Source: Candidatus Rifleibacteriota bacterium (GTDB lineage Bacteria > Muiribacteriota > Ozemobacteria > Ozemobacterales > Ozemobacteraceae). From it: 64,000 bases of DNA. The position numbers and the translations under genes were made by a program. The notes under the pieces are model-generated. The model was not told the origin of the DNA. It ran no database searches and was given only the letters and a program-made list of their open reading frames with translations. Below, one piece after another: positions 1-63,542 of this stretch (its first letter is position 1; every line of letters begins with the position of its first letter). Where the stretch lies: positions 13,688 to 77,687 of the forward strand of contig JADFZL010000026.1 of the NCBI GenBank assembly GCA_015232575.1. The letters run 5' to 3'.

Positions 1-1893
1 GGTATAATTGGAATGGCTGGAATTTTGCAGGATACAGACCTTGATCCAGAGCAGCGGGAGTTTGCTGATACGATTAAGTCATGTTCTGAATCGCTTCTTA
101 CAATAGTAAATGACATTCTCGATTTTTCCAAAATTGAGGCGGGTAAGCTTGACATAGAAATAATACCTTTTGAAATCAGACTTGTGCTGGACGATCTGGT
201 TTCCCTCATGTCCGTAAAAGCAAAGGAAAAATGTATTGGTTTTACATGTACTCTTGATCCAAAAATTCCAAAGACCCTCCTCGGTGATCCAGGAAGAATT
301 AGACAAATTCTTTTTAACCTTGTCGGGAACTCAATCAAGTTTACTTCTAAAGGCGATGTCCTTGTTTATATCATTTCAGAAAACCAGACTGAAGACAAAA
401 TCAGATTGAAGTTTTCAGTAGCAGACACTGGAATAGGTATTCCTGAAGAAATGAAATCCCGTCTTTTCAAGCCCTTTTCACAAGTAGATGCGTCAACAAC
501 AAGAACTTTTGGTGGTACAGGACTCGGACTTGCAATTTGCAAAAGACTTGTTGAAATGATGAATGGTGATATTTCTTTTGAAAGCAAGCCGAATGAGGGT
601 TCAACGTTCTTTTTCACTGCAGAATTAGGTATCAGTAAAAAAATCGAATCTAAGGATGAACAAACCCTACCCAATCTTCATGGCAAAAAAATACTGATTG
701 TTGATGACAACTCAACGAATAGAAAAATCTTGTGCGAATTACTCAAGAATTGGCATTTCAAGTTTGAGGAAGCTTCTGATGCCAATGAAGCCATTTCTCT
801 GCTGAAAAGTGCAAAGCGCTCTGGCATGCCATTTGATCTGGCAATTCTTGACATGGTCATGCCACAAACTGATGGTGAAATGCTCGGAGCAAAGATAAAA
901 GAAGATCCGGAAATTTCAGACATTATAATCATCATGCTGACTTCTTTTGGACGGCGAGGAGATTTAGACAGACTTTCTAAAATTGGATTTGCCGGATATC
1001 TGAACAAACCAATTAAACCTTCCCAGCTTTTCGATTGCCTTGTCTCTGTTATTGGAAGCACCCCTTCAAACAGCTGCAATAAAATAGTTTCCACATTTCC
1101 TTTGACGCCTGAAAGAAAAAGACAGGTGAAAATCCTTCTTGCAGAAGACAACACTACTAATCAGAAGGTTGCAGTAAGAATCCTTCAAAATCTTGGTTAC
1201 AATGCAGATGTTGTAAATAACGGGAAAGAGGCGCTGAGAGCACTGGAAATCTCTGAGTATGACCTGATTCTGATGGATGTACAGATGCCTGAAATGGACG
1301 GTCTTTCAGCTACTTCCCTTATAAGAAGCGGTGCATCGGGTGAGAAAAAGAAATATGTTCCAATTATAGCAATGACCGCACATGCAATGCGTGGAGATAA
1401 AGACAGGTGCATTGAACATGGAATGGATGATTATCTTTCAAAACCGGTAAAACCCTCAGAATTATCCGAAATGATACAAAAATGGGCTCTTGGTAAAGCT
1501 GACAGTGAACTTAAACCGGCTGGTAAAACTTTTACACCAAGGGAAGAAATTTTCGATAAACCGGGAATGCTTGAAAGGCTTGGTAAAGACGATCTGCTTT
1601 TAAAGGAAATCATAGATGTTTTCCTTGATGACGTGCCTAAGCAACTTGATTCACTAGGAAAAGCAATAATTGAAAATGATTTCCTGAAACTTACAAAGTT
1701 TGCACATCGGTTAAAAGGAGCTGCAATGAATGTTGGGGCTATTTCACTTCATAAAGCGGCATTTCAGCTTGAGAAGGCGGCTGAGAAGAAAGACAGCAAT
1801 TTTACAAACGTTTCTTTTGAAAATGTAAAGATGGAATTCGAAGAATTTAAAAAAATGCTTTACATCACCGGAGTATTGCCCTCAATTCCTTAA
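1..1893 (+). CDS. hybrid sensor histidine kinase/response regulator, 5'-partial (HisKA - HATPase_c - REC - REC - Hpt)
   Basis: Reading frame is open from nt 1. HisKA-like dimerization helix (EQREFADTIKSCSESLLTIVNDILDFSKIEAGKL), ATPase G-boxes (DTGIGIPEE; GGTGLGLAICKRLVEMMNG), two receiver domains (KILIVDDNSTNRKIL...DLAILDMVMP; KILLAEDNTTNQKVA...DLILMDVQMPEMDG), C-terminal Hpt (HRLKGAAMNVGA). Confidence 0.85.
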   Translation, partial: GIIGMAGILQDTDLDPEQREFADTIKSCSESLLTIVNDILDFSKIEAGKLDIEIIPFEIRLVLDDLVSLMSVKAKEKCIGFTCTLDPKIPKTLLGDPGRIRQILFNLVGNSIKFTSKGDVLVYIISENQTEDKIRLKFSVADTGIGIPEEMKSRLFKPFSQVDASTTRTFGGTGLGLAICKRLVEMMNGDISFESKPNEGSTFFFTAELGISKKIESKDEQTLPNLHGKKILIVDDNSTNRKILCELLKNWHFKFEEASDANEAISLLKSAKRSGMPFDLAILDMVMPQTDGEMLGAKIKEDPEISDIIIIMLTSFGRRGDLDRLSKIGFAGYLNKPIKPSQLFDCLVSVIGSTPSNSCNKIVSTFPLTPERKRQVKILLAEDNTTNQKVAVRILQNLGYNADVVNNGKEALRALEISEYDLILMDVQMPEMDGLSATSLIRSGASGEKKKYVPIIAMTAHAMRGDKDRCIEHGMDDYLSKPVKPSELSEMIQKWALGKADSELKPAGKTFTPREEIFDKPGMLERLGKDDLLLKEIIDVFLDDVPKQLDSLGKAIIENDFLKLTKFAHRLKGAAMNVGAISLHKAAFQLEKAAEKKDSNFTNVSFENVKMEFEEFKKMLYITGVLPSIP

Positions 1894-40099: not shown

Positions 40100-40125
40100 T
40101 GAACCTTTAGTTTCACTGAAGCGTA
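40100..40125 (+). promoter_or_regulatory. candidate ECF-type promoter (TGAACC-16-CGTA)
   Basis: Resembles the ECF/SigW-type consensus TGAAAC-N16-CGTA. Lies about 25 nt upstream of the AGGAGA Shine-Dalgarno of the anti-sigma gene. Confidence 0.4.
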
Positions 40126-48593: not shown

Positions 48594-48596
48594 AAT

Positions 48597-49958
48597 ATGA
48601 AAGATAAAATCAGAGTCGTTTTCATAAAACCCAATATGGGCCTGGTTTACGGAAAGCCATACTACGACCGTGGACGCATGGAACCGCTTACTTTTGCTGT
48701 CTTGGCAGGAATGCTTTCTGATGATGTTGAATGCATCCTTTATGATGATCGGTTTGAAAAAATTTATTATGACAAACCGGCTGATCTGGTTGCCATAAAT
48801 GTTGAAATTTATACTGCGAGAAGAGCTTATGAAATTTCGGCTGAATTCAGGAAACGTGGAGTAAAAGTCATTCTTGGCGGATATCACGTTTCAATGCTTC
48901 CAGAAGAAGCGATGGAACATGCTGACGCTATAATGACAGGCGACGCTGAACAGATATGGCCACAAGTGGTTAGCGATGCTGCTGCCGGTAATCTGAAAAA
49001 GATGTACAATGGAGTTTTCCCGCCAGTTTTATCTGGAATAAAAACCAGATGGGAAATTTTTGAAAACAAATCTTATCTTCCGATCAGGTTGACACAGTTC
49101 AGCAGAGGCTGCAGTAATCACTGCAAGTTTTGTGCAACAGGTACCATATACAAAAGAACTCATGTCTGCCGGCCTCCAGAGGAAGTTGTTGCAGAACTTG
49201 CAGTTCAGAAAAACAAGTTTGTTTTCTTTGTTGATGACAATATTATTGCTGAACCTGAAACAGCAAAAGAGCTTTTCAGAAGACTTATACCGTTGAAAAA
49301 AAGGTGGATAGGACAGGCAAGTCTGAATTTCACAAACGACCCTGAATTGATGGATCTCATGCAAAGAAGCGGGTGTGCCGGTCTTGTAATCGGATTTGAA
49401 ACTGTGAATCCGGAAAACCTTGCACTTATGGAAAAAAACTGCAATCTTCAACTTGAAAGCTATGATGACGCCATTGAAAAAACACGCAAAATGGGACTTA
49501 TGCTGTGGGCAGCTTTTTTGATCGGGTACAACCATGACGATATAAACAGTATACGAAAAACTGTACAATGGGCTATAGACCGAAAGTTCTGTTTTGCTGC
49601 ATTTAATATCCTCAGCCCATACCCGAGCACTGTCGTTTACGATGAAATGAAAGCTCAAAACAGGCTTTTGTATGATAAATGGTGGCTCGACGACCGTTAT
49701 CATTTTGGAGATGCCGTTTTCAAACCGACAAGAATGACACCGGATGAACTAACGGAAGCTTGTTTCTGGGCTCGCAGGCGTTTCAACAACCCACTGACAA
49801 TTTTAAAAAGAGTTCTTGATTTCCAGACAAACGCCAAAGACCTCTGGAGCATTGCAACATATTTTGCATACAATCCACTATTCCGCCGCGAATTGTTCAA
49901 AAAACACGGAATGATACTCGGATACCGTAATAAACACACGAGTCACCAGGGCGAGTAA
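48597..49958 (+). CDS. B12-binding-domain radical SAM protein (paralog 2)
   Basis: Collinear similarity to the upstream gene (MEPLTFAVLAG, CSNHCKFCATG, KWWLDDRY). Confidence 0.7.
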   Translation: MKDKIRVVFIKPNMGLVYGKPYYDRGRMEPLTFAVLAGMLSDDVECILYDDRFEKIYYDKPADLVAINVEIYTARRAYEISAEFRKRGVKVILGGYHVSMLPEEAMEHADAIMTGDAEQIWPQVVSDAAAGNLKKMYNGVFPPVLSGIKTRWEIFENKSYLPIRLTQFSRGCSNHCKFCATGTIYKRTHVCRPPEEVVAELAVQKNKFVFFVDDNIIAEPETAKELFRRLIPLKKRWIGQASLNFTNDPELMDLMQRSGCAGLVIGFETVNPENLALMEKNCNLQLESYDDAIEKTRKMGLMLWAAFLIGYNHDDINSIRKTVQWAIDRKFCFAAFNILSPYPSTVVYDEMKAQNRLLYDKWWLDDRYHFGDAVFKPTRMTPDELTEACFWARRRFNNPLTILKRVLDFQTNAKDLWSIATYFAYNPLFRRELFKKHGMILGYRNKHTSHQGE

Positions 49959-50057
49959 GAAAAGAACTTGTTATTTGATGCTGATTTTTAAGATTTTCTG
50001 ATATTTTTCTAAATAAGCATTCCTGTCATTAAAAAGAAATAAATATTCTTATGTTAA

Positions 50058-50098
50058 AACTATTGGAACAAAAATACTATTTATTCTGTTTTACAAAT
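50058..50098 (+). promoter_or_regulatory. TTGGAACAAA promoter motif (copy A) upstream of the ECF sigma gene
   Basis: CTATTGGAACAAAAATACTATTTATT lies 41 nt upstream of the ATG. GGAAC is the typical ECF -35 core. Confidence 0.45.
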
Positions 50099-50110
50099 TA
50101 GAGGGGAAAA

Positions 50111-50662
50111 ATGAGCTTGGAAATAAACAAGGTAAACCCCGGAATTTTGTTAGACGAACAGTTAATAAAAGATTTTCAGAAAGGTTCTGAAGAGGCATTT
50201 GAAGTGCTCTTCGACAGATATTTTCAAAAAATCTTTTGTTATACTTTTTCTTTTTTGAAAGATCATGAAGAAGCAAAAGACTTAACGCAGGAAATATTCT
50301 ATAAATTATACAAAGGGTTGAAAACTTATCAGGAACAAGGGAAATTCAAAAGTTGGATGTATTCTGTCGCAAGACTGACAATCATTAACAGATTCAGAAA
50401 GAAGGGAAAGGAAATAGTCTCTTGTGACCAGGAACTCGTTGAGACAACAGGAATGTCCGATTCGGACAACTCTTCCGGGGGTAATGATTACTTGTCATCT
50501 CTTTCAATTGTCGAAAGAGAAATTATTTCCCTGAGAATTCTGGAAAAACTACCTTACGAAAAAATATCTGAAATTACATCCCTTTCTACCAGCTATTTGA
50601 GGAAAGTTGTTTTCAGAATATTAAATAGGTTCAGATCAGAGGTTTCAAAAAATGAAATGTAA
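50111..50662 (+). CDS. ECF-family RNA polymerase sigma factor
   Basis: Region 2 (FEVLFDRYFQKIFCYTF...DLTQEIF) and region 4 (LPYEKISEITSLSTSYLRKVVFR). Confidence 0.8.
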   Translation: MSLEINKVNPGILLDEQLIKDFQKGSEEAFEVLFDRYFQKIFCYTFSFLKDHEEAKDLTQEIFYKLYKGLKTYQEQGKFKSWMYSVARLTIINRFRKKGKEIVSCDQELVETTGMSDSDNSSGGNDYLSSLSIVEREIISLRILEKLPYEKISEITSLSTSYLRKVVFRILNRFRSEVSKNEM

Positions 50663-51623
50663 TAAAGCCTACAACTGGTTTGAAAATGAAATCAATTCAG
50701 ATCAGGATAATTCTTTTTCTGAAATACAGGAACATGCTGATAAATGCATTGAGTGCAAAAATTTTCTGAAAAATCTGAACTCTATTGAAAGAGAGATTTC
50801 CACATGGAAATTAAGCGAAACAGAGTTTACAAATACCAAATCTAAGTTTTTTGCCGGTTTAAAGAAAAGTGACATTGAAGCAACACCTGAAAAGCATCTC
50901 ATTTCCGGGAAAGTATTGTTATTGTTAACCGCAGTAACATTTTCCACTATTGCACTTTTCACTGAATATCACAAAACACCAATATCTCAGAATACGTCCG
51001 AAAATACGTCCGAAACTGCACCCCAAATTTCTGTTACCGGAAAACAGGCAGTTCTTTTCAAAAAGAATGGTATCCGAATTCCATTATTAAATGAGCCCGT
51101 GCAGGTAAAAGAATCATCGTATTTTCTGGAATTCTCAGATGGTGCGACTCTGGATTTTCAAAAAGCAGGAAAAGTTGAACTCTCCGGCAAAGGAACAATA
51201 CTTCTATCATCTGATGGATTCTCAACAAGCGATGGTAATTTTTCTGTTAATTTTCAGTCAACAAAAACAGATTTAAAGATATATCTTCCGACCGTCATAC
51301 TTAAATCAAACAATGCCGGAATAAATCTCAAGCTAACTTCTGGAAACGGCTACGCTGAAATTTCGAAAGGAAAAGCAGAGTTGTTGTCTCTCTCAACCGA
51401 GTCAGTTATTTCTGCATTTGAAACTGGTGAGAAAATAGTGATTTCATCTGGAACATCCACTAAAACTTCAGAAATTCCTGATGGTGTAAGAATCCCCAAA
51501 ACACATGAATCTTCAAGTTCGGTACAAGAAGAAAAAAATAACACGATTCAGAATAAGAAACATCCACCGAAAAAAACCGGAGAAATTGTCAATGACTCAC
51601 TTTTCGACCAAAGCGAAAAGTAA
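50652..51623 (+). CDS. zf-HC2 anti-sigma factor with TM and periplasmic domain
   Basis: HADKCIECK (H-x3-C-x2-C), TM helix, 11-nt overlap with the sigma gene. Confidence 0.65.
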   Translation: MKCNKAYNWFENEINSDQDNSFSEIQEHADKCIECKNFLKNLNSIEREISTWKLSETEFTNTKSKFFAGLKKSDIEATPEKHLISGKVLLLLTAVTFSTIALFTEYHKTPISQNTSENTSETAPQISVTGKQAVLFKKNGIRIPLLNEPVQVKESSYFLEFSDGATLDFQKAGKVELSGKGTILLSSDGFSTSDGNFSVNFQSTKTDLKIYLPTVILKSNNAGINLKLTSGNGYAEISKGKAELLSLSTESVISAFETGEKIVISSGTSTKTSEIPDGVRIPKTHESSSSVQEEKNNTIQNKKHPPKKTGEIVNDSLFDQSEK

Positions 51624-51714
51624 GAATTTTTCGACTTATTTATTGGTTAAACGCGGGTTGGAGAGTTTCTGATTAAATTGAATGCAAAATTTCAGAATAC
51701 TTTGCTTTATTAAA

Positions 51715-51775
51715 AATATTGGAACAAAAAAGCATTATTTTGCAATTTATTACTTAGGAAGTAAATTTAAAAAAT
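51715..51775 (+). promoter_or_regulatory. TTGGAACAAA promoter motif (copy B), extended 58-bp conserved block
   Basis: AAAAATATTGGAACAAAAAAGCATTATTTTGCAATTTATTACTTAGGAAGTAAATTT is near-identical to 62428-62485. Confidence 0.5.
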
Positions 51776-51793
51776 TATTTTCGGAGGGTAACA

Positions 51794-53989
51794 ATGAAAT
51801 TCTCATTCAAAGTGACTGCATTTCTTTTCTTCTCTCTTCTGATTGGCTCTGTTGGTTTCGCTGACGACCTCGGGTCGCTTCAGCAGTTGAGATTAAAAAG
51901 AAGCTGGAAACCTCTGATCGAATTATCTCAAACTGTAATTGCCCGGGAAGAAGCAAAAAAATCTGATCCTGATGCGGCAAGTGGTGATGGCATGCTTCTC
52001 CGATTTGCTTATGAAGGATTATACGAAGGACTGGTAGGCACATCAAGATTTACAGAAGCGCGTGACCTGACTGATAAAATTATTAACAGATTTACGGCAA
52101 CGAGTGAACCGAAAGTTGACACCCCAAGTTATCAGTCTTTGTGGAAATTATGGCAATATCGCGCAAAATCGTTCATTACTGTTCAGGATCAATTATTAAA
52201 AGATAAAATTACTTTTTTAAAGATGGCGCGAGATGCCTTTATCTGGCAAAATAACAACTTGAATGCCATTTTGACCAATCTGGTCAGACATAACAACAAT
52301 TTGAAATCCTTTGAATGCAGAATTCTTAATGCATCCCAGGTGATTGATATTGGAAAATCCATGGAGGGTTGGGCAAATACGATTTCAAATTACGAACAGC
52401 ATACAGACGATGTAATTTGCAACCAGAGAATCAGTTTGTTAGACAGATATGAAAAGAAGGGAATCAAATTAACTTCTGAAATGCTTGATTCTCTTGATTC
52501 TGAATCGCTGACAAAGAAGGAATATGTAGATCAGGTTCTCTTATCAAACCAGCTTATCGCAAGTTGCAGCAGCTTAATGTCTTCAAACTGGAAGTATCTG
52601 CGTGGACAAAAGTATGTTGGATTATACGTTCATGGAAAAGATTTTGAAAGACTTATTGATAATATGAATTCCAGTTTTGAAGATTTTGAAAGATTCCAGC
52701 AGATTAATGAAAAGAGAGTGTTCGCTTTGGATTTCTCCGGATCATATAAAGAATTCCAGAATCGATGCTCAATGGTTAAATTTGCAGATACGATTGCCAT
52801 ATTAAAAAATGTTCCGTTTAGTGGTTCTTCTGATGAAGGCATCAGAATTGAGAATTTACGAAGGTATATTCAGGATAATTCAGCAACCCAAGTTATTACT
52901 TTTTTTGCATCTACTGCAGCAAGAAGTCTTGGAAGCTCCCTTGAAAGCATGTTTTCCGGAATTGAGAATAAGTGGATGGCAGTATCAGGTTTTCTGAAAG
53001 CGAACTCCATACCTGGAGACATGGACTCTGACGGCCAATATTCAGACAATGACATGAAATTGTTCAGGGGCTATTTTGATTCATTTCCAATAATCCTTGC
53101 CAGTACAACAAATTCAGTCATTCACAACATGAATCTGAATGGAGACGCAATCATAAGCCTTGCGGACTATTCCCTCCTGGTGGAAGCTGTAAATGGAAAT
53201 CGCAAGTTTTTCCCGTGTGATTCTGATAACAGAATGGGAGATTTGTCCGGAAATGGTTCACTGGATGAAAATGATGTAGCAAAATTTGCCTATCTTTGCT
53301 TCAATCGCCCCTCTCCAAAGGGCGATATCTTCAGAATCATGAATATTAATAAGCGCAATGTTCCGCAGATACAAGATGTTGTTTCATTGATTGTCAGAAT
53401 GATATTTGAAAACAGTTATGCAATGGGTCGCATCATGACCGACGTGAAATACAATGGTAACAATGTGAATTTCCTTGCGGAAAAACCGGTTCTTGACGTA
53501 AATAAAGACAACAAGATATCTCTTGCTCAGGACTTTGAACTGATGATGCGTCAAGTAGCCTTTCTCTCTGGCACTCCAGTTCCAACAGGTGCGATTGGAA
53601 ATCTTAATAAAGATGAAGATCTTGGCTCTTCAGATCTGTTCCTGTTCGTGTATCATTCATGGGATCTTTTCAAATCATATTTTAAAACTGAAACACCTTT
53701 CAAATGGTTCACTTCAAATGAATATCCAAAATACCAGGCTTATATGTATGATAGATGCAAACTTCTGAATAACAGAAATATCTGCGGACACAAAAACTGT
53801 TCCAATATGTGCAAGGAAACTTTACCTGAGTTAGTTTTCAAAAGAAATGGAGGAGCCCTTGTTGTTACCTTAGCAGGCTACAAAGAACATACATCAATAT
53901 CTTCAACTACACAGGCTCCTGAAGCACCAAAACCTGCCCCTCAGAGCTCTACTCAAAACAATGGCATTGGAAGCAGTGAAGACCTCTGA
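51794..53989 (+). CDS. secreted protein with dockerin-like Ca-binding repeats
   Basis: Signal peptide. DMDSDGQYSDNDMKLF..., LNGDAIISLADYSLL..., DLSGNGSLDENDVAKF... (D-x-D/N-x-DG-x...D pattern). Confidence 0.6.
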   Translation: MKFSFKVTAFLFFSLLIGSVGFADDLGSLQQLRLKRSWKPLIELSQTVIAREEAKKSDPDAASGDGMLLRFAYEGLYEGLVGTSRFTEARDLTDKIINRFTATSEPKVDTPSYQSLWKLWQYRAKSFITVQDQLLKDKITFLKMARDAFIWQNNNLNAILTNLVRHNNNLKSFECRILNASQVIDIGKSMEGWANTISNYEQHTDDVICNQRISLLDRYEKKGIKLTSEMLDSLDSESLTKKEYVDQVLLSNQLIASCSSLMSSNWKYLRGQKYVGLYVHGKDFERLIDNMNSSFEDFERFQQINEKRVFALDFSGSYKEFQNRCSMVKFADTIAILKNVPFSGSSDEGIRIENLRRYIQDNSATQVITFFASTAARSLGSSLESMFSGIENKWMAVSGFLKANSIPGDMDSDGQYSDNDMKLFRGYFDSFPIILASTTNSVIHNMNLNGDAIISLADYSLLVEAVNGNRKFFPCDSDNRMGDLSGNGSLDENDVAKFAYLCFNRPSPKGDIFRIMNINKRNVPQIQDVVSLIVRMIFENSYAMGRIMTDVKYNGNNVNFLAEKPVLDVNKDNKISLAQDFELMMRQVAFLSGTPVPTGAIGNLNKDEDLGSSDLFLFVYHSWDLFKSYFKTETPFKWFTSNEYPKYQAYMYDRCKLLNNRNICGHKNCSNMCKETLPELVFKRNGGALVVTLAGYKEHTSISSTTQAPEAPKPAPQSSTQNNGIGSSEDL

Positions 53990-54011
53990 TTTTCAGAATT
54001 TTCTAAAAAAC

Positions 54012-54050
54012 CAGACCTGTCCAGTTTACATTCTGATCTGGACAGGTCGT
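54012..54050 (+). terminator. terminator hairpin (11-bp perfect stem GACCTGTCCAG / CTGGACAGGTC)
   Basis: Immediately after the stop codon. The T-tract is weak. Confidence 0.5.
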
Positions 54051-54156
54051 TAGATTTCTGTTTCAATATATCGTTTTTGTTAAACCGAAATTTGCCTTCT
54101 AAGTAGGCAAAATCTTAAAGAAGGAAGCAAATTTGCGTGTTAACATTTGGGTGGGC

Positions 54157-54250
54157 TGTCATCTCGAATAAATGTGAGATATCTGATAAAAGCGAGATTT
54201 CTTCCTTCAGTCGAAATGATATAGTAGAAATTCTGAAGCTTAAATGACTC
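54157..54250 (+). repeat. Y-type conserved intergenic element, copy 2
   Basis: CTGTCATCTCGAATAAATGTGAGATATCTGATAAAAGCGAGATTTCTTCCTTCAGTCGAAATGAT...GAAATTCTGAAGCTTAAATGAC. Confidence 0.6.
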
Positions 54251-54329
54251 CTTTATTAAGATTTGCTGTACAAAGGTAACTATGGGTTTGAGAGTTTATG
54301 ATTAAGTACGAGTCGGATATGGGAAAGAG

Positions 54330-57050
54330 ATGCAACAAATGATCATACGGAGCAGCATAAATGTTCTTGAATATGTAAGAGTACGTGGTATTGTTCTTCC
54401 GATTATTATTGCAATTTTCGCATGTCTCGCAACCTTTTTTTTCTCGCTTAATATGATCAGTCGCAGTCATCTTAATAAGATGCAATACCATGAAATTGAA
54501 GAAGTAGTATCCACAATTGGAAATGATGGTGCCAGATATCTTTCATACTCATTCGAAGACGTTTCACATCTTTCACCTGAAAATAAAGCTAAATTCGATA
54601 AATCATTCGGAAGTCTTTTTTCATCAAATTCACTTAGACCACAAACTATCACATCTGATCAATCAGATTTTTTAAGGGACGTAAAAATTGAGTTTCAGAG
54701 TCTGCTTGAATCATATAATTACAATTATCCCGACCGTCTTTCAAAGCTGTTTTCTCCTTTTGGAAATCACCCGGTTTGCATGAGAATGCAGTTAACCATT
54801 GAACAATCACCAAAGCTCATTCCAACAGGTTTGGTTAATAACATAAGAAATACAGTTCTTCACGAAATACTAAAATGTCCTATCAATGCAATGAATAGCG
54901 AGGAACTTCAGAAATATTCATTTGCCGCGGGAAAAGATGAAACAGAAAAAAATGGTACAATGAAATTTTCCTGCACAGTTTACTTCAGAGGTGTTGCCAG
55001 AGAAGTAACTTTGTCAAAGCAATTCAAGGTTATCAGTATGGTTCCGGGTCCATATTCCCGTTTTACCCTTTTTGCTCCCTCAACACCTGATACAGAAGCT
55101 TATAATGTTATTGAGAACACCTATGCTGGTAATTATCACAGCGATTCGTCATCATATAGCGGTCATAAGAGACTATTACTGATAAATGGAACGGATACCT
55201 TCAGTATAGGTGATGATCCACAATCGACTCTGAATTCACTTTCCAGTGATCTAATAGACTCAGCATCAATGCTTCAGAATCGAGGATGGGTTTTTCTGGG
55301 GAAGCCTCCTCAGGGATGCTTGCGATTAAATATTCCTGCTGGTTTTTTCCCACCAGATCCTGCTTTTCCCATTAATTCACTTTTTGAGGAGCATCCGTCT
55401 CAAATAAACGATGGAATTGGAGGTCAGATATACCTTACCTGGCCACAAAAGATATTAGATTCATCTTCTAATTTTAAACTGGCTGATACTCCAATCGAAA
55501 TTGATGATACCACAATATTTAATCTTGATTCAACAAAGGATGAAAAGCTGCTTTCAAGACTTCTTGGTTTTTTTGTCAAGCAGGGTTCATCCGGTGGCGC
55601 ACACGAGCTTGAACTCTGGCACAAACCAGATCCGACAAAATCTTCAGAAATGGTACCTTTACAGCGGACAGACTGTAAAACATCCTGGATTATGCCATTT
55701 GGCGATAGGCAATATATTTCACGTACCCTGCTCGTGGGTGAAGTACTCGCAAATTTTCTTCAGGTATACATGCTGAATCTTGACAAGAGTATTGCTCCGC
55801 CACAGAAAAATTATGGACTGATAAGAAGATATCTTGGAGCAGACGTTGATCGGGACTATTTTCTGCGTTTTCTGGTTCCTGATTGCTACTGGATTGGTCC
55901 CCTTCCTCCGCCAACTTATGAAAGCTTCATCAATTCGACCGTTCCACACCACCCAAAAGAAGTGCTGGATTCCATTTCTCCGAAAGTAGCACAATTTCCC
56001 CAGCAATCCTTTTGTGGAGTTCCGTTTAACCTTTTATTTGACTGTATGCAGTATTCAGACAGACCTGAATTTATCACCTGGGAAACACTTCCAAACTCGT
56101 CTGGCATTGGAAATATTTTCAACAAAAAAGCCGTTCCAGGTATTCCTGGAAATAAAGTACTAAATGAAGGCATCGGTCCAAATGATTCAACACTACTTGC
56201 ACCGAACACCTTCTGGAAAAACATTCAGCCCGACACAATTCAACTCTGGAAATCAGAGGCAGCAAACTCAATTGCACTTGGTAAAATTGATCGCTGGACA
56301 TATTATTACGGGAATCTGAGCAAACTTCATTTTAACAAATTTAACGCTTCCCCCAACGTTGCAGATAATCTGATTGAAAAATGGGGACTTTTTTCCAGAG
56401 TTACAAATATCATTGATCTGGATAATCCAGATATCCCCCCGGGAAAAGAAATGGCTTACCTGAAAGCGATGGGAATAATTGAAGATGCCGTAATGCCTTC
56501 CGGTGAAAAAGTTTATCGTCTGAACCATTCAGGAGTCTACATGTTTCTGAATAATTCCCCTGCAAGAAATCTGGTTCTGGACCGTCCAATGATATTGAAC
56601 AATTCAGCTATGTTCATTCTTCAAAGGGGAGATTTTGTTATAAAATACGGTGTACAATCACAAGAAACAGACAAAGACGGCATTCCAAAATACCTTTTTT
56701 CGTTTATTGCTCTTGATGGTCATATTCAATTGCCTCCAATTCCCGGAAAATATGCAAAACCTCTTCACGCTTATCTCGTGGCACTGAACAATTCTGTAGA
56801 TGGACACGGAGGAACCATTAAGAACTATGACGGAGCAAGCGGAAATTCCTGCCAGATCTATGTTATCGGAGGCATAGCAGCATTTACTATCGCACCATCA
56901 ACACTTGGAAGAACCATGTTTTCTGATTTTAAAGGCGGAGGGATAATATTGTACAACAGCAATTTCAACCCATGCCTGCCAGCAAATAATGAAAGATATA
57001 AGCTTATCATAGAACAGAGTGATCTTGGAATTATTGTTACAAAGGGTTGA
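54330..57050 (+). CDS. large (906 aa) N-terminally anchored protein, first gene of a second pseudopilin operon
   Basis: TM helix (VLPIIIAIFACLATFFFSL). Followed directly by two prepilin-type genes. Confidence 0.6.
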   Translation: MQQMIIRSSINVLEYVRVRGIVLPIIIAIFACLATFFFSLNMISRSHLNKMQYHEIEEVVSTIGNDGARYLSYSFEDVSHLSPENKAKFDKSFGSLFSSNSLRPQTITSDQSDFLRDVKIEFQSLLESYNYNYPDRLSKLFSPFGNHPVCMRMQLTIEQSPKLIPTGLVNNIRNTVLHEILKCPINAMNSEELQKYSFAAGKDETEKNGTMKFSCTVYFRGVAREVTLSKQFKVISMVPGPYSRFTLFAPSTPDTEAYNVIENTYAGNYHSDSSSYSGHKRLLLINGTDTFSIGDDPQSTLNSLSSDLIDSASMLQNRGWVFLGKPPQGCLRLNIPAGFFPPDPAFPINSLFEEHPSQINDGIGGQIYLTWPQKILDSSSNFKLADTPIEIDDTTIFNLDSTKDEKLLSRLLGFFVKQGSSGGAHELELWHKPDPTKSSEMVPLQRTDCKTSWIMPFGDRQYISRTLLVGEVLANFLQVYMLNLDKSIAPPQKNYGLIRRYLGADVDRDYFLRFLVPDCYWIGPLPPPTYESFINSTVPHHPKEVLDSISPKVAQFPQQSFCGVPFNLLFDCMQYSDRPEFITWETLPNSSGIGNIFNKKAVPGIPGNKVLNEGIGPNDSTLLAPNTFWKNIQPDTIQLWKSEAANSIALGKIDRWTYYYGNLSKLHFNKFNASPNVADNLIEKWGLFSRVTNIIDLDNPDIPPGKEMAYLKAMGIIEDAVMPSGEKVYRLNHSGVYMFLNNSPARNLVLDRPMILNNSAMFILQRGDFVIKYGVQSQETDKDGIPKYLFSFIALDGHIQLPPIPGKYAKPLHAYLVALNNSVDGHGGTIKNYDGASGNSCQIYVIGGIAAFTIAPSTLGRTMFSDFKGGGIILYNSNFNPCLPANNERYKLIIEQSDLGIIVTKG

Positions 57051-57057
57051 CCAGATT

Positions 57058-57561
57058 ATGAAAAAAGCTGTTACATTTGTTGAAGTTATAATAAGCATGG
57101 CAATAGTTGCAATTATTGTTTTTCCATTTCTTGATTTAATGTATTCCTCAAAAAAGAACGCCACAGGCTCAATGTGTGAGCTTCTTGCAACGCACTATTC
57201 TCATGAAATTACCGATCAGCTTGTAATGCTTGGAACATCAATTGGCTATAAAACTCTATGCAGCCAATCGAGTCTCTCAATGAAAGATCTGCTTGAAAGT
57301 CTGAATGATAAACTTCTGGAAAAAGAAAAGATGGCACGTCTTCCACTTAAAAATCTTGATGTTTCAATTCTGGTATCACCAATGGCGCGTTTCTTTGAAG
57401 AAAGAAAAATTACTGTTGAAGAAATACCGGGTAACAGACAGTTAGTAAAGGGGGATTACTTTAAAGTAGTTGTAAAAATCGGTTGGAAATTACCTTCTGT
57501 ACAATTAGACTCCAACACCAGTTACCATGAGGAAGTGGTGTTTTTGAGAAAAACCTTATGA
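57058..57561 (+). CDS. prepilin-type N-terminal cleavage/methylation domain protein (pseudopilin)
   Basis: MKKA|VTFVEVIISMAIVAIIVF: E at +5, hydrophobic helix. Confidence 0.7.
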   Translation: MKKAVTFVEVIISMAIVAIIVFPFLDLMYSSKKNATGSMCELLATHYSHEITDQLVMLGTSIGYKTLCSQSSLSMKDLLESLNDKLLEKEKMARLPLKNLDVSILVSPMARFFEERKITVEEIPGNRQLVKGDYFKVVVKIGWKLPSVQLDSNTSYHEEVVFLRKTL

Positions 57562-58316
57562 AAGCGATTAAATCTGCAAAAATTAGCGAAAATTCAGATT
57601 ACATGAAACAAAATTTATTCAGATCATTCGCTGTTGAAAACAGAGCTTTTACCATTGTTGAGCTTTGTGTAACAATATTGATTGCTGCCTCCATATTGTA
57701 TTTTACTCAAAGTTTTTTTATTTCCGGAGTTAAGCACAGTATTTCAATTACAGAATATCTTGATTCAATTGATCAGGCAAATAAACTGATCTTCTCTATC
57801 CGTCACGATCTTCTCAACTGCAAATCCGTAATAACTCCCGATGATTCCGGAAATCCTATTGAAGCACTTCTGAGCTGTGGTTCGCCAGAACTCCCATCTT
57901 CAGAAACAACGGTATATCCATCCATGCTCATAATCAGCATTGGGGACAACGCAACAATTTCATACCAGATAAACTTTCAAAAGCCTGATGTGACAGGAGT
58001 TGCAAGAATTGAAGAAGAAAAGAAAATAAGTGATAATTCGATATCCAGAAATGTAACCTGGTTTTCGGTTTCAAAAATTCGCACTTTCAAGGTTATTGTA
58101 CTGAAAAACACACATAAAATTGAAAATGTCGGTATGAATACCCGGCATCTTTATCTTGAAATGGAAGTTTGTCCAATGAAAAAATCTGGTGAAACAGATG
58201 AAGAAAATAAAAGGAAGAGTGCAAAACTTATCAATACCATTTCCCCTAATTCATTAGGTTATTCCACCTGGAATTATCATCTTCCAACCAACGGGGAAAG
58301 AATTACGACACCATAA
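57558..58316 (+). CDS. prepilin-type N-terminal cleavage/methylation domain protein (pseudopilin)
   Basis: ...NRA|FTIVELCVTILIAASILYF. The start may be ATG 57603. Confidence 0.65.
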   Translation: MKAIKSAKISENSDYMKQNLFRSFAVENRAFTIVELCVTILIAASILYFTQSFFISGVKHSISITEYLDSIDQANKLIFSIRHDLLNCKSVITPDDSGNPIEALLSCGSPELPSSETTVYPSMLIISIGDNATISYQINFQKPDVTGVARIEEEKKISDNSISRNVTWFSVSKIRTFKVIVLKNTHKIENVGMNTRHLYLEMEVCPMKKSGETDEENKRKSAKLINTISPNSLGYSTWNYHLPTNGERITTP

Positions 58317-58351
58317 TTCATACAATTCAAATAATTACCAGGAGAAAATTT

Positions 58352-58765
58352 ATGAAAATAATATTGTCAATCGTATTATCTTGTTTCATTGCTATTTCAC
58401 CACAAACTGCATCAGCAAGCACTGAGAAGAAAAATCTTTCAGAAGATTGCGATTTATTAATTCCCAATAATACCGGTGGATTAAAAAAAAGAAAAGCAAC
58501 AGAACTTTCAAAGAACAGAAAGCAAAAAGTCCAGGTTAAAACTGTTACTTCAAAAATTAAAGACCCGACAACCGGATTGATTCTTACGATAGAAAGTGTC
58601 ATTCCAATTTACTCAACAGCATCAGACACAGCAAGTATTTTTCAAAACAACGGTTCAGATGATGAAGAAAAAATATCGCCAGAAAAATCAAAACCTTGTC
58701 CATACTTTAAAATGTATTTTTACAATCAAAAATCAAGCAAAATTCTTGTTCCAGGATATAAGTAA
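58352..58765 (+). CDS. small secreted hypothetical protein
   Basis: Signal peptide MKIILSIVLSCFIAISPQTASA. Confidence 0.5.
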   Translation: MKIILSIVLSCFIAISPQTASASTEKKNLSEDCDLLIPNNTGGLKKRKATELSKNRKQKVQVKTVTSKIKDPTTGLILTIESVIPIYSTASDTASIFQNNGSDDEEKISPEKSKPCPYFKMYFYNQKSSKILVPGYK

Positions 58766-58796
58766 TTCTAACGTCGGAATCGGGGAATAATCGCTA

Positions 58797-59876
58797 ATGT
58801 TAAGAAAGATCAACGAAGCAACTTCAGAAGAGAAAATTAAGATTATCAATTCTCTTGAAAAAGACCAGCCCGATGTTGGAATCATTCTGACAGATCTGTT
58901 AAATTCTGCAACCATTGAAAATGCAGTTAAATGTGAGATTCTTAAAGTAGCAGAGAAACTTGGATATTCAAACTTGGTTCCCTGGGCAAAAAACAATGTT
59001 GATTCAACAGACAATTCATTGAAATTTTCCTGTCTGAACTATCTTGCTTGTTATTCCCAATATGACGCAATGCTGACTCTCTACGGTTTTTTAACATCAT
59101 CTGACAATAATAATATCGATATTTCAAAAAGGATTTTATCAATAACCAAATCCAGAAAAATTGTTTCACAGATTTCAGAATTTTTTAATTCTTTTGATGA
59201 CGAAAAACATACTATTGCAAAACTTCTTCTCACAAATCTGGATTTTTCAGATATGAATTTTTGTGAAATTCTTATTGAAGAGTTTTTAAAACAACCTTCA
59301 ACTGACTTTTTTGTTGAAATTCAAATCTTTATGAGAAATCTCAAAATTCAGGATAGATCCAGACTGCTAAACAAACTTGCAGAAGTACCTTCTTTTCCAA
59401 TAAGTAGTGAGGCTCTTCTTTTTAGACACAAACTCATTTCCGACTTCAAGTGCGAAACCTTTCCAGTTGATTCTCCCGCTGAAACGCAAATACGTGAAGT
59501 CTCGAATTCAAAGAAAAACATCTCTCATACTTCAAATATAGCTGCCATTTCTGCAATCATTGTATTAGCAATCATAATTCTTCGCGTTTCTTTTTCGGAG
59601 AACCCAGATCAAAAAGTTTCCAGAAATTATTCCTATCAATTTTCAGAAATCACTTCCAAACCAGTCAAAATGGAAGGAACAGTTGTTGAATACCGCAATC
59701 AGTCAGGTTTATATCTAATTCACATGGAAAAAGGAGGCAACCTCCTTCTTCAGGTTCCCGAACCCATTTCAAAAGGAATACTGTTGCCCCGTGAAAAAAT
59801 TATCTTTTATTTTACTCCGATAAGAGTAAACTCAGAGGGAATAACCATTGCAAAATGTACCAGTGTTTCCTGGTAA
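58797..59876 (+). CDS. hypothetical single-pass membrane protein (helical N-domain, TM, C-terminal beta-rich domain)
   Basis: TM helix IAAISAIIVLAIIIL near aa 240. Confidence 0.5.
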   Translation: MLRKINEATSEEKIKIINSLEKDQPDVGIILTDLLNSATIENAVKCEILKVAEKLGYSNLVPWAKNNVDSTDNSLKFSCLNYLACYSQYDAMLTLYGFLTSSDNNNIDISKRILSITKSRKIVSQISEFFNSFDDEKHTIAKLLLTNLDFSDMNFCEILIEEFLKQPSTDFFVEIQIFMRNLKIQDRSRLLNKLAEVPSFPISSEALLFRHKLISDFKCETFPVDSPAETQIREVSNSKKNISHTSNIAAISAIIVLAIIILRVSFSENPDQKVSRNYSYQFSEITSKPVKMEGTVVEYRNQSGLYLIHMEKGGNLLLQVPEPISKGILLPREKIIFYFTPIRVNSEGITIAKCTSVSW

Positions 59877-59923
59877 AATCATTTTCAATTAATTTATGGG
59901 CTTGTTGTACAATTACATTATCG

Positions 59924-59949
59924 TTAGTCCAAAGACCTTGTGGACGTTT
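59924..59949 (+). repeat. 26-bp direct repeat, left copy (TTAGTCCAAAGACCTTGTGGACGTTT)
   Basis: 24/26 identical to 60827-60852. Confidence 0.8.
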
Positions 59950-60826
59950 GTTAGTATTACGAAATGTGTCAATCTTTTTGAGACAGTTCAAGAAAAAAAT
60001 TCAGGGCAATATCCTGACTGAATAAAGACCTATTCTCCAGATACTTACTTCGCCTCTTGTCGTCATGGACGCCAAAAGCTTACCCTTTTCTATACGAAAT
60101 TTTTTTCTTACTGCCCTCACCTTCGACGAACAGTACGGAATCCTGAATCTGAGGAATGCAAAAGGAGCACCCAATAAACTGACCGATCTTTTCCGCCTCC
60201 CCTTCCTTTTCTTTGAAGTGCTGGCGGCGAAATGCGTGTGACAATTCATACATCGTTCCGTCCTGCCAAACGGCAACGAGACGGTATGCCCAATATGTTC
60301 CGTATCGACCGCTGATCTTTTCCCCCTGGAATCCAAGGCCCAATATGCCTTCAAAGGGCTTGAAGGATAGCTCTCTGGAAAAGCCCCTGAATGAAATAAT
60401 CCCGTAAATGCCTTTGCGTTTCTGGTCAATACAGACATCATCCCGAGCAAAATTCCTGAGAAAGATCAGCAGAATTCCCATTCCCATTACCAAGTGTCCG
60501 AGAGGCGCCCACCACCGGTCGAAAGACGAGGTGTGGGGCATCACGCTCATCAGATAACAATACCCACTGACCCCCAAGACGAGCCAGGGAAGGACAAGCA
60601 GGATTCCCAGACGATGATATCCAAAGCCTATCGTCATTCTGCCTCTGGCTGAATCGAGATGAATTTCTGTCTGAGGTAATACGGTCATCATGATAACATC
60701 CTCCTGAAAATACTCTCCGGTTATACTGCTAGACTTGCAGAACTCACTACAACTTTGATAATTACCCCATTATCAGACAAGTTTTACCTGTTTCGTTTAG
60801 ATCATATTTGTTTTTTAAAATTATCA
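59950..60826. mobile_element. GC-rich (about 50%) 0.9-kb islet bounded by 26-bp direct repeats; candidate horizontally acquired cassette
   Basis: Base composition contrasts sharply with flanks of 35% GC or less. Contains a single gene. No recombinase gene present. Confidence 0.4.
60080..60691 (-). CDS. hypothetical membrane protein (2 TM + soluble domain) within the GC-rich islet
   Basis: 203-aa ORF with GC-rich codon usage. Helices LGILLVLPWLVLGVSGYCYLM and LGHLVMGMGILLIFL. Confidence 0.6.
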   Translation of the reverse strand: MMTVLPQTEIHLDSARGRMTIGFGYHRLGILLVLPWLVLGVSGYCYLMSVMPHTSSFDRWWAPLGHLVMGMGILLIFLRNFARDDVCIDQKRKGIYGIISFRGFSRELSFKPFEGILGLGFQGEKISGRYGTYWAYRLVAVWQDGTMYELSHAFRRQHFKEKEGEAEKIGQFIGCSFCIPQIQDSVLFVEGEGSKKKISYRKG

Positions 60827-60852
60827 TTAGTTCAGAGACCTTGTGGACGTTT
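60827..60852 (+). repeat. 26-bp direct repeat, right copy (TTAGTTCAGAGACCTTGTGGACGTTT)
   Basis: See left copy. Confidence 0.8.
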
Positions 60853-60991
60853 ATACGTTCAGGCTGAAAGTTGCATCTTTTCATGGTGCATCAGGATTAT
60901 CAATGGTCACAACACCTCCTTTTGCATTTTGAGCAGCTTCGGCCTATTTGTGCAATACAGGCATGTCTGAGATTAGACTGTTTTTTCGAAA

Positions 60992-61531
60992 TCACTTTTC
61001 AATATTCACTTCTTTTATTGAGTGTAACATGAAATAGAAATCCAGATATTCATCTTTTACGACTTCTATAATTGCCTTAACCTTTAATTCGGAAAACTTT
61101 CCTGCGTCTTTTGCTTTCTCACCTTTTCGGCCAATATAAGGCTTCAACGCATTGTAAACAAACCATCCCTGATCGCTTCTGAAAGGACCTTGATCGCTAC
61201 GCAATAAACAATCAATTTCTTTCGCATTAGCCTGAAGATATTTCATCGCTTCTAAATCGGGTTTATTTTGCTTTGAAAAACCTGGAACAGGAACACTTTG
61301 CATTGAAACGACTTCGCCTGTTATCCGCTTAACAATTTTAGAGATTGAATAAGCAGAATCGGTTGAATTAAATAGATTGTTACTGATAGCACATTTAACA
61401 TCGGTAATTCTCATAATGACTTCAAAGTAGCTTGTCAGATTGCTTTCTGCATAGCTGATACCATTAATTAGCAACAGTCCAATCACAACCAACGAAACCA
61501 TAACACTTTGGAATTTCTGTCCAGTAAGCAT
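60992..61531 (-). CDS. secreted hypothetical protein
   Basis: Signal peptide (VMVSLVVIGLLLINGISYA). Confidence 0.55.
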   Translation of the reverse strand: MLTGQKFQSVMVSLVVIGLLLINGISYAESNLTSYFEVIMRITDVKCAISNNLFNSTDSAYSISKIVKRITGEVVSMQSVPVPGFSKQNKPDLEAMKYLQANAKEIDCLLRSDQGPFRSDQGWFVYNALKPYIGRKGEKAKDAGKFSELKVKAIIEVVKDEYLDFYFMLHSIKEVNIEK

Positions 61532-61579
61532 ATATTATCTCCTTTATTATTTTTCACCAACTATTATATTAAACAATCC

Positions 61580-61605
61580 ATTTTTTGGATTTGTTCCAAT
61601 TTATT
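61580..61605 (-). promoter_or_regulatory. TTGGAACAAA promoter motif (copy D, minus strand)
   Basis: Minus-strand AAATTGGAACAAATCC lies about 60 nt upstream of ATG 61531. Confidence 0.4.
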
Positions 61606-61850
61606 TTCTTTTTTATTTTGTCCATCGTACAAAGTCATAAATTTCTTCAAACAAATAGGAATGGATGAAAGAAAGCCCAGCGAATCTGCCGACTTCTACA
61701 TTGTCAATATCGCCGGAGTCAAAAAGCTGCCTGGCTTTTTGCTTACTGATTTTTTCCTCGGCTTATGCCAAGTCAACCTGATTCAACCTGATCGGTGATC
61801 TTTAATTTGTTTTCTAATATCATAGGGCACCTCCTTCAATCTCCGCAATA

Positions 61851-62375
61851 GTGATGTCAATATCGGTTGATTGCTATATGTTCATCGGTGAGAAGTTGTT
61901 ATTCGGAAAAAATCTGCCTGAGCTACTCTTTTTAGAGAACCCACTTGATTTTTATTCTATTTTTTGTGCCAAATTTGTGATAAATCCACGCGAGCTTGAT
62001 TGCACAATTTATTTACTCGTTGATTTAGTAGAGCTCGTTTCAGCGGAAGTCGGACGTCTCTGCGGAACAATCTTAAACTTCCGCATTTTGTACAGACCAG
62101 AATGGGAATTTTCTTTCCCTCCTGCACCGGAACAGGAATTCTCGAAGTTTGATACAAAAACATTCGAATTCAAAGAAATTCTTTGCCTCTGCCGGGACTT
62201 AAAAAGCCGTAACATCGTGCCCTCTTCATTGGACAGCGCCAGCGTCATGCAAAAGAACCATGAAGGTTACCCTGAGTCCCATTTAAGTGATTGGCGGTTG
62301 TCAAAGAATCGCTGCAGTGACTTTTTCAGACAACCCTTAAACTGCTGGTTTTGGTGCCTGCAGGGGATGACATAA
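61851..62375 (+). CDS. hypothetical protein (weak)
   Basis: 174-aa ORF with no recognisable features. Competing antisense ORFs exist. Confidence 0.3.
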   Translation: MMSISVDCYMFIGEKLLFGKNLPELLFLENPLDFYSIFCAKFVINPRELDCTIYLLVDLVELVSAEVGRLCGTILNFRILYRPEWEFSFPPAPEQEFSKFDTKTFEFKEILCLCRDLKSRNIVPSSLDSASVMQKNHEGYPESHLSDWRLSKNRCSDFFRQPLNCWFWCLQGMT

Positions 62376-62427
62376 TTTCATGGGCTATTGTACCGCAGAA
62401 AAAAACTTACAAAATAAATAAAATAAA

Positions 62428-62488
62428 AATATTGGAACAAAAAGGAGTATTTTTGCAATTTATTAGGTAGGAAGTAAATTTTCTAATG
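62428..62488 (+). promoter_or_regulatory. TTGGAACAAA promoter motif (copy C), extended 58-bp conserved block
   Basis: AAAAATATTGGAACAAAAAGGAGTATTTTTGCAATTTATTAGGTAGGAAGTAAATTT. Confidence 0.5.
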
Positions 62489-62516
62489 ATATAAATTATT
62501 TCTTGGAGGAAATATA

Positions 62517-63542
62517 ATGTCTATAATAAACAAGATTCTTATTCTTTCCACATTTTTGGGTATTATAGGAAACCTGTTTGCAGTTGAACCGTCATTATTA
62601 GTAAGAAGCTACGTTAATGGAGCAGAAGGAGCTGCTGATGCAACCAATGTTACAAATATGTGGCACCAAACCAATCATTCCGTTCAAGCGCATAGAGGCT
62701 ATACCTATGCAATAGATGCCGCCAAAACTCCCGAAGATATGATCTTGATTATAACTTCAATGTCAGGCCGACAAGAAAGCAGAACTGGAATCGGTTTTCC
62801 ATGCAACTATGCTTACGATAAAATCACCTCAAACCTTGGCGTTTACTTCCGAGATCTTGAAACAGCAAAAACAATATTGTTGATTTCTTCACAAGAGCAC
62901 CGGAGAAACGTCTTTTCTTGCCCCTCCTCGGAAATTCAGAAAAAATGGCAGGATTATCTTGTGGTAAATTATGGAAATTCTTTTCGAGAAGCGATGGATA
63001 ACGCAAAGAGTTTCGCCGAGATTTCCCTTGGCTTTACCATGGCTTTTTGCAAAAGAGCTCGGGAACTTGCGAATACTCCTAAAGAGCTGCATGAAATTTA
63101 TCAATTTCTCTCCTCAGATGAAACTTTAAAAAGAACTCCCCTCTGCAAGGAATTGTTCAAACTTGTCCCGGAAGGCGAAATAGCTTTATCAGAATTCAAT
63201 AAAAATGCCATTGAAGCTTCTCTGATTAAAGAACAAAAAAATCTGGAAATAATTCAGAATCGGATTAAAGTGACTCAAAAAATGCAGGATCCCAACCCAA
63301 GCTTATCGGATAAACTGGCTTATCGCACCACAGGCTTAGGAATGAGAGGTGATCCACCCGAAAAAGTTCTGCCGGTCCTACGGACCAGAGAATCCGAATA
63401 TGAAAATCTGGTAGCAAAACTAACAAAGCAACTTTCGGAACTCAATACCCTTATTGACGAGAAAAAGGAAGAACTTGCCAATTATTCCGCAGTTATTCCG
63501 GTTACAGTTAAAGCTGATGGAAATTCACCATTTGCTGAGTAG
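62517..63542 (+). CDS. secreted hypothetical protein
   Basis: Signal peptide (ILILSTFLGIIGNLFA). GGAGG Shine-Dalgarno. Confidence 0.6.
   Translation: MSIINKILILSTFLGIIGNLFAVEPSLLVRSYVNGAEGAADATNVTNMWHQTNHSVQAHRGYTYAIDAAKTPEDMILIITSMSGRQESRTGIGFPCNYAYDKITSNLGVYFRDLETAKTILLISSQEHRRNVFSCPSSEIQKKWQDYLVVNYGNSFREAMDNAKSFAEISLGFTMAFCKRARELANTPKELHEIYQFLSSDETLKRTPLCKELFKLVPEGEIALSEFNKNAIEASLIKEQKNLEIIQNRIKVTQKMQDPNPSLSDKLAYRTTGLGMRGDPPEKVLPVLRTRESEYENLVAKLTKQLSELNTLIDEKKEELANYSAVIPVTVKADGNSPFAE

Follow-up and report, generated by a model that had tools for sequence, protein, structure and literature searches.

RsiW, the partner of the sigma factor SigW, is a membrane anti-sigma factor of the ZAS type that spans the membrane once and carries an N-terminal Cys-(x24)-HxxxCxxC motif; RsrA and RshA, which are likewise ZAS anti-sigma factors, are soluble redox sensors. 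In clostridia, the alternative sigma factor SigI and its transmembrane anti-sigma factor RsgI, which has an extracellular part, control the dockerin-bearing genes of the cellulosome. Sigma factors of the extracytoplasmic function (ECF) type share as hallmarks a two-domain architecture, an AAC in the -35 element, co-transcription with an anti-sigma factor and positive autoregulation, the latter being predicted for about 55% of ECFs (PMC8103513). For the actinobacterial factors SigE and SigH, the promoter consensus is GGAAC/T-N18-19-GTT (PMC10012870). Here we compare these systems with a locus in a Candidatus Riflebacteria metagenome-assembled genome (locus tags HQM10_250xx), contained in a 64-kb stretch of the 83.8-kb contig JADFZL010000026.1 that we call the window and to which all motif counts refer. 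An earlier inspection of the letters alone (the sequence-only reading) had proposed that an ECF sigma factor in this window regulates itself and a local set of exported proteins, a proposal that was supported by every sequence-level test we ran. We estimate at about 0.68 the probability that an ECF sigma/anti-sigma pair here regulates its own operon together with a small regulon encoded nearby. The two-domain sigma factor and the AAC of the -35 element can be read from the sequence, the anti-sigma factor is probable, and autoregulation is implied by a copy of the promoter motif ahead of the sigma gene (site A). On this basis, the standard ECF mechanism is the most likely one.

The genes of the proposed regulon are connected by an 11-mer, ATTGGAACAAA, which occurs exactly four times in the window, at 50062, 51718 and 62431 on the plus strand and at 61600 on the minus strand; we refer to these copies as sites A, B, D and C, respectively. 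The shorter form TTGGAACAAA likewise has exactly four matches (50063+, 51719+, 61599- and 62432+), all of which are extended by a flanking A to the invariant 11-mer. In shuffled sequences it was found 0.58 times on average, and none of 100 shuffles reached four copies. The raw recurrence of the word is not special by itself. In this AT-rich window, 424 different 10-mers are present in at least four copies, compared to about 213 in Markov simulations, and one-mismatch variants of the word occur at three other places, showing no excess over chance. What sets the word apart is its location. All four copies are intergenic and thus fall within the 6.5 kb, or about 10%, of the window that lies between genes, where no 10- or 11-mer other than ATTGGAACAA, TTGGAACAAA and ATTGGAACAAA reaches four copies. 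When intergenic DNA was simulated with a Markov model, any 10-mer with at least three G/C reached four copies in only 5 of 500 runs. Every copy points in the direction of the gene that follows, the distance from GGAAC to the ATG being 46, 73, 66 and 83 nt at sites A to D, and an A-rich tract precedes the word at all four. The word is asymmetric and present once per site, and the four sites cluster within 12.4 kb starting at the sigma gene. The sequence-only reading was accordingly borne out in its two basic observations, namely that a common motif stands upstream of four genes and that this motif holds the canonical ECF -35 core, GGAAC being part of the invariant 11-mer at 4/4 sites. Intergenic DNA contains nine GGAAC in total, and four of the nine are the word sites.

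The sigma factor downstream of site A is a protein of 183 residues (50111-50662, plus strand; HQM10_25075, a tag interpolated from neighbouring locus tags). Pfam detected Sigma70_r2 at residues 33-100 (E value 9e-16) and Sigma70_r4 at residues 128-175, and neither region 3 nor region 1.x. Regions 2 and 4 only, a short linker and a length of about 180-200 residues were the features by which we assigned a protein to the ECF (group 4) type. Against TIGR02937, the model of the sigma70-ECF superfamily, the protein scored 71.8 bits (cutoff 42.9); none of the equivalog or subfamily models in NCBIfam was matched at its own cutoff, so that no ECF subgroup is thereby given. The closest solved structures are AlgU, SigW and RpoE, and M. 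tuberculosis SigH gave a weak match (E value 7e-7). The two-domain architecture and these nearest structures are points of likeness to the RpoE-RseA and SigW-RsiW systems. At the sequence level the protein is isolated: a search of one genome each from 185,579 species retrieved no relative above 30% identity over most of the protein, the best ECFs reaching 22-30%, and a word-index search of 5.8 billion proteins returned only the protein itself.

The next gene (50652-51623, plus strand; HQM10_25080) overlaps the end of the sigma gene by 11 nt and encodes a protein of 323 residues that is labelled hypothetical in GenBank. Its N-terminus, MKC3...EH28ADKC32IEC35, has the spacing C3..H28xxxC32xxC35 and thus contains the ZAS signature in sequence, that is, HxxxCxxC with a further Cys or His about 25 residues upstream. 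One hydrophobic transmembrane stretch (about residues 87-105) follows. The C-terminal 220 residues, which are probably located outside the cytoplasm, are rich in Ser and Thr and were built mostly as beta-strands in a low-confidence model. Given its position, motif and topology, the 323-residue protein is a probable anti-sigma factor. The overlapping downstream gene, the single membrane pass and the N-terminal Cys-(x24)-HxxxCxxC are all shared with SigW-RsiW, and the HxxxCxxC is shared with RshA and RsrA, from which the protein differs in being membrane-anchored. In contrast to the partners in the RpoE-RseA and SigW-RsiW systems, it is not recognized by any hidden Markov model; even when isolated, the N-terminal 72 residues gave no zf-HC2 or NCBIfam match at E values up to 10. 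The word-index protein search with the full protein again returned only the query. Also unlike RpoE-RseA and SigW-RsiW, there are no site-1 or site-2 protease genes nearby, and the members of the proposed regulon have no close relatives.

We next consider the anatomy of the four putative promoters. Site A (50055-50112, plus strand), the putative promoter of the sigma operon, has the word at 50062-50072 and GGAAC-N18-GTT at 50065-50090. Site C (61543-61607, minus strand) is organized in the same way, with the word at 61600-61590 and GGAAC-N18-GTT at 61597-61572. At sites B (51711-51768) and D (62424-62481), two putative promoter cassettes on the plus strand, the word is located at 51718-51728 and 62431-62441. 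With the first G of GGAAC as position 1, T26, T27, A29 and a TAG at 35-37 are common to all four sites, which can be aligned in a fixed register of GGAACA, 17 nt, a T-rich putative -10 hexamer (GTTTTA, GTTTAA or AATTTA), 6 nt and the A of TAG. From this register, transcription starts may weakly be predicted near 50100 (A), 51756 (B), 61562 (C) and 62469 (D). Across three independent sites, 8 of the 35 columns downstream do not vary, for which comparison with random intergenic DNA gave P = 0.005. No CG dinucleotide is found within 40 nt downstream of GGAAC at any site. As in RpoE-RseA and SigW-RsiW, the putative -35 element has AAC at its core and the operon of the sigma factor itself is preceded by a copy of the putative promoter (PMC8103513); unlike in those systems, there is no -10 of the CGT or TCAAA type. 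Later ECF classifications no longer hold CGT in the -10 element as defining (PMC8103513), and the SigR/SigH groups use GTT in this position (PMC10012870). Compared to the actinobacterial SigE/SigH/SigR promoters, sites A and C match GGAAC-N18-GTT exactly, whereas sites B and D have AAT in place of GTT.

Sites B and D are related beyond the word. The segments 51711-51768 and 62424-62481 are identical at 51 of 58 positions (88%) and have sharp edges. The sequence-only reading had noted this near-identical block, which is real, and had ascribed it to the copies it called B and C; the block in fact joins the second and fourth copies, our sites B and D. Likewise, the AT-rich partial palindrome described within it is intact in the 51.7-kb copy (TTACTT-AGG-AAGTAA) and broken in the 62.4-kb copy (TTAGGT-AGG-AAGTAA). 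A conserved hairpin in the 5' untranslated region was rejected, since the palindrome of B is not kept in D, and gene duplication was rejected as the source of the block, since the proteins encoded downstream are unrelated. The seven mismatches, of which five are in the spacer, are grouped in two clusters and leave the -35 block, TTTTGCAATTTATTA and TAGGAAGTAAATTT unchanged. In a post hoc test, the probability of such clustering under uniform placement was about 0.0008, and the pattern would fit selection on promoter elements better than recent neutral duplication. Sites A and C have only the word and the register in common with B and D, and no duplicated segment. Of note, TAGGAAGTAAATTT is fully kept at the predicted start of B and D only (51756-51769 and 62469-62482) and could be an operator or an element of the initial transcript. 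One might combine these features by assuming that the sigma factor founds an undescribed ECF subgroup while the 58-nt cassette separately holds a second, sigma-independent element. Such a sigma factor could read a T-rich -10 without CGT, and the second element, TAGGAAGTAAATTT at the predicted start, could provide two-input control or mark a promoter cassette copied before new genes. We regard this joint reading as rather unlikely.

The three genes facing sites B, C and D encode proteins of 731 residues (51794-53989, plus strand; HQM10_25085), 179 residues (60992-61531, minus strand; HQM10_25120) and 341 residues (62517-63542, plus strand; HQM10_25130). All three proteins have hydrophobic, signal-peptide-like N-termini, are not paralogues of each other and are singleton "hypothetical proteins" (for the 179- and 341-residue proteins according to an exact-sequence cluster look-up only). 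The 179- and 341-residue proteins belong to no known family; the C-terminal third of the latter gave sub-threshold coiled-coil family matches only, and a single-sequence AlphaFold2 model of the former was unusable, with a predicted local distance difference test (pLDDT) score of about 36. The 731-residue protein, for which the word-index search returned only itself, had been called dockerin-like. Directly compared with Pfam Dockerin_1, residues 448-496 scored 16.4 bits, below the cutoff of 22.9. When 1.84 billion representatives were searched in full with HMMER, 20 relatives were recovered, aligned over residues 385-537 only, with E values down to 4e-14. Ten of these were scanned and all ten carry strong Dockerin_1/EF-hand domains; for P0003, P0004 and P0005 the Dockerin_1 domains fall inside the stretch aligned with the 731-residue protein. 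There is thus a fair case, by transitive homology through dockerin-bearing relatives, that residues of about 385-537 form a divergent tandem dockerin/EF-hand-like module, and the label can be kept. Apart from these relatives of the module and the distant ECFs at 22-30% identity, none was recovered for the sigma factor, the 323-residue protein or the 731-residue protein. With a sigma factor, a transmembrane anti-sigma candidate with an extracellular part and a secreted candidate target of the dockerin-like type, the locus is analogous to clostridial SigI-RsgI. It differs from that system in that SigI is not a two-domain sigma factor of the ECF type, no RsgI or carbohydrate-binding domain was detected here, and the dockerin match stays below the Pfam threshold.

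Taking these data together, we propose that the 183-residue sigma factor would be held at the membrane by the 323-residue protein through its N-terminal Cys/His (ZAS-like) domain. An envelope or extracellular signal, acting via the extracytoplasmic part of the 323-residue protein, would release the sigma factor, and the free protein would guide RNA polymerase to the four promoters, using as -35 element the GGAAC within ATTGGAACAAA after the A-rich tract. Site A would drive the sigma/anti-sigma operon itself, creating positive feedback, and the exported proteins of 731, 179 and 341 residues would each be expressed from a monocistronic gene, driven by sites B, C and D, respectively. Of these targets, the 731-residue protein would bring a dockerin-like calcium-binding module.

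Several observations weigh against this mechanism. The putative -10 element differs between sites, being GTTT at A and C and AATTTA at B and D, and CGT is absent from the expected -10 position in all four. Of the slid registers, 10% match the downstream conservation of 8 in 35 columns. GGAAC-N17-19-GTT has 19 matches in the window, mostly in genes, and because the pattern is this common in coding DNA, a match to GTT does not set a site apart. At site C, TTGGAA is followed 25 nt later by a perfect TATAAT. The 323-residue protein is without a match in Pfam, NCBIfam or the PDB, and its single-sequence AlphaFold2 model is unusable (pLDDT 36). Since the counts are from 64 kb, the word could be common elsewhere in the genome. 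Finally, no orthologous or syntenic locus was found for the sigma, 323-residue or 731-residue gene, and there is no phylogenetic footprint. In metagenomes, the transketolase-family enzyme encoded in the window has relatives at 64-70% identity, which are accompanied by neither synteny nor homologues of the cluster genes. The word is absent from the 80 metagenome loci retrieved in this way, and in all loci compared it was matched only once, in the unrelated genome locus L004.

We weighed the autoregulated switch against other explanations of the four sites. The four sites might be read by a different ECF sigma factor encoded elsewhere, in which case site A would reflect a cascade and not autoregulation. 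Bacteria often have many ECF sigma factors with overlapping GGAAC -35 elements (PMC10012870), and the analysis covers 64 kb of the genome. Moreover, a second ECF pair is encoded about 9 kb from the sigma gene, in which the gene order is reversed: a 188-residue protein (40150-40716) with the motif C3..H25xxxC29xxC32 and one transmembrane stretch is followed by an ECF sigma factor of 184 residues (40819-41373). This pair serves as an internal control. It is preceded by a site of its own of the canonical ECF type, GAACC-N16-CGTA (40101-40125), and there is no ATTGGAACAAA nearby. Judged by these sites, the organism has classical ECF promoters and its two pairs have distinct motifs, which is what one would expect of ECFs that each recognize promoters of their own. 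Considering also that all four word sites lie in the 12.4 kb beginning at the sigma gene of the 50-kb pair and that autoregulation is the prediction for about 55% of ECFs (PMC8103513), we find it unlikely that another ECF sigma factor is responsible.

Still within regulatory explanations, ATTGGAACAAA could be the binding site of an ordinary activator or repressor next to housekeeping promoters, instead of a sigma -35 element. A canonical ECF -10 is missing, the perfect TATAAT of site C lies further downstream, and the additional conserved blocks of B and D, TTTTGCAATTTATTA and TAGGAAGTAAATTT, could serve as operators. The word itself does not behave accordingly, being asymmetric, present in one copy per site and always co-oriented with the gene, and it has the ECF -35 core inside and stands directly ahead of an ECF sigma operon. 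No other regulator gene is found within the cluster. Furthermore, no pair of -35 and -10 elements resembling the sigma-70 consensus was called at the sites: when we scored TTGACA-16..18-TATAAT with at least 9 of 12 matches, 44 matches were obtained between 49500 and 64000, and on the strand that matters none of them coincides with sites A to D. Housekeeping sigma-70 promoters were accordingly rejected for these sites, and we consider control by an ordinary transcription factor improbable.

The similarity of the four sites might have no regulatory meaning and be a relic of local non-coding duplication or a product of chance. Repeated 10-mers are abundant in this AT-rich window, with the 424 present in at least four copies, the 88% identity of B and D is what a recent duplication would leave, and the region of site C is rearranged, containing a truncated Fic pseudogene and flanking direct repeats. 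Set against this, the word is the sole 10/11-mer with four intergenic copies, an outcome that simulations produced in 5/500 cases only; A and C share no duplicated segment with B and D; the B/D mismatches avoid the -35 and downstream blocks; and orientation and start-codon distance are consistent at 4/4 sites. Together these features render a relic or chance origin very unlikely. Sigma-54 promoters (TGGCAC-N5-TTGCA) have next to no probability, for although TTGGAAC resembles TGGCAC and site B has a GC 10 nt after the GG, this spacing falls short by one base and the other three sites lack a GC at -12, which contradicts the assignment, and no gene for an enhancer-binding protein is nearby.

The autoregulated ECF switch, if confirmed, would give Candidatus Riflebacteria, a phylum that is known through metagenome-assembled genomes alone, its first sigma-promoter pair with a defined mini-regulon. 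Four "hypothetical" proteins, including a probable anti-sigma factor that was missed by all profiles, would be placed in a regulatory context, and the ECF sigma factor and its promoters, as an orthogonal pair whose -10 element is unusual, could be of use in synthetic biology. The understanding of how ECF systems work is unchanged by the locus, which would be an ordinary bacterial stress-type switch of a well-known kind in a poorly known lineage; what it adds, besides the lineage, are orphan proteins, a non-canonical -10 and the promoter cassette common to B and D.

Turning to the neighbouring genes, the transcription unit of the 731-residue protein would be closed by a probable terminator, an 11-bp GC-rich hairpin with a T-rich tail (54014-54048, plus strand; z = -4.4). 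It is followed by an operon of five orphan genes (54330-59876) that encode a 906-residue protein with a hydrophobic stretch at the N-terminus, two proteins with prepilin-type N-termini (57019-57561, with a weak N_methyl match, and 57558-58316, with AFTIVE), a 137-residue protein with a signal peptide and a 359-residue protein that has a transmembrane stretch at the C-terminus. This pseudopilin-like operon has neither a secretion ATPase gene nor a platform gene next to it. The sequence-only reading had placed the operon inside the ECF cluster, and as a matter of position it is indeed a neighbour. As a member of the regulon it was rejected: its 340-nt upstream region has no GGAAC, and the strong hairpin lies ahead of it. 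The operon is a neighbour and not a demonstrated regulon member.

The stretch next to site C has been rearranged. On the minus strand, 61607-61823 encodes an N-terminal fragment of the Fic family, which matches residues 8-68 of PDB 5nv5 (E value 8e-21) once a 10-nt tandem duplication (CAGGTTGAAT/CAGGTTGACT) and an in-frame TAA are removed. The homology breaks off after ...EEIYDF, some 20 nt upstream of site C, and the rest of the Fic gene looks as though it had been replaced by the site C promoter and the 179-residue gene. Further along, a 33-nt direct repeat (59917-59949 and 60820-60852, 91% identical, with the exact 17-nt core AGACCTTGTGGACGTTT) flanks a G+C-richer minus-strand gene for a membrane protein of 203 residues (60080-60691). 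On the minus strand each repeat resembles TCCACA-16-GATAAT, and the pair could represent a promoter duplicate or an insertion scar.

The remainder of the window is ordinary chromosomal DNA with a G+C content of about 39% and a coding density of about 90%, with clear Shine-Dalgarno sites before genes and no known RNA anywhere according to Rfam. Its gene content includes flagellar genes, MutS, UvrC, the transketolase-family enzyme, amidases and two tandem genes for B12-binding radical-SAM proteins (47259-49958). The latter are located immediately upstream of the sigma operon, and the 152 nt that separate them from site A contain no visible hairpin terminator. A second word, the 9-mer TATTGAGAA, is present in four intergenic copies (11101 on the minus strand, 20181, 22932 and 47077) and six copies in the window as a whole, compared to a shuffle mean of 1.4. 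Its intergenic copies lie upstream of unrelated genes, the radical-SAM pair included, and it may be another regulatory word. Lastly, an 18-nt tandem coding repeat (ATGCCTGGAATGGGCGGT...) at 34647-34822, with eight 14-nt cores, encodes MPGMGG within a 480-residue gene (33711-35153) next to fliM.

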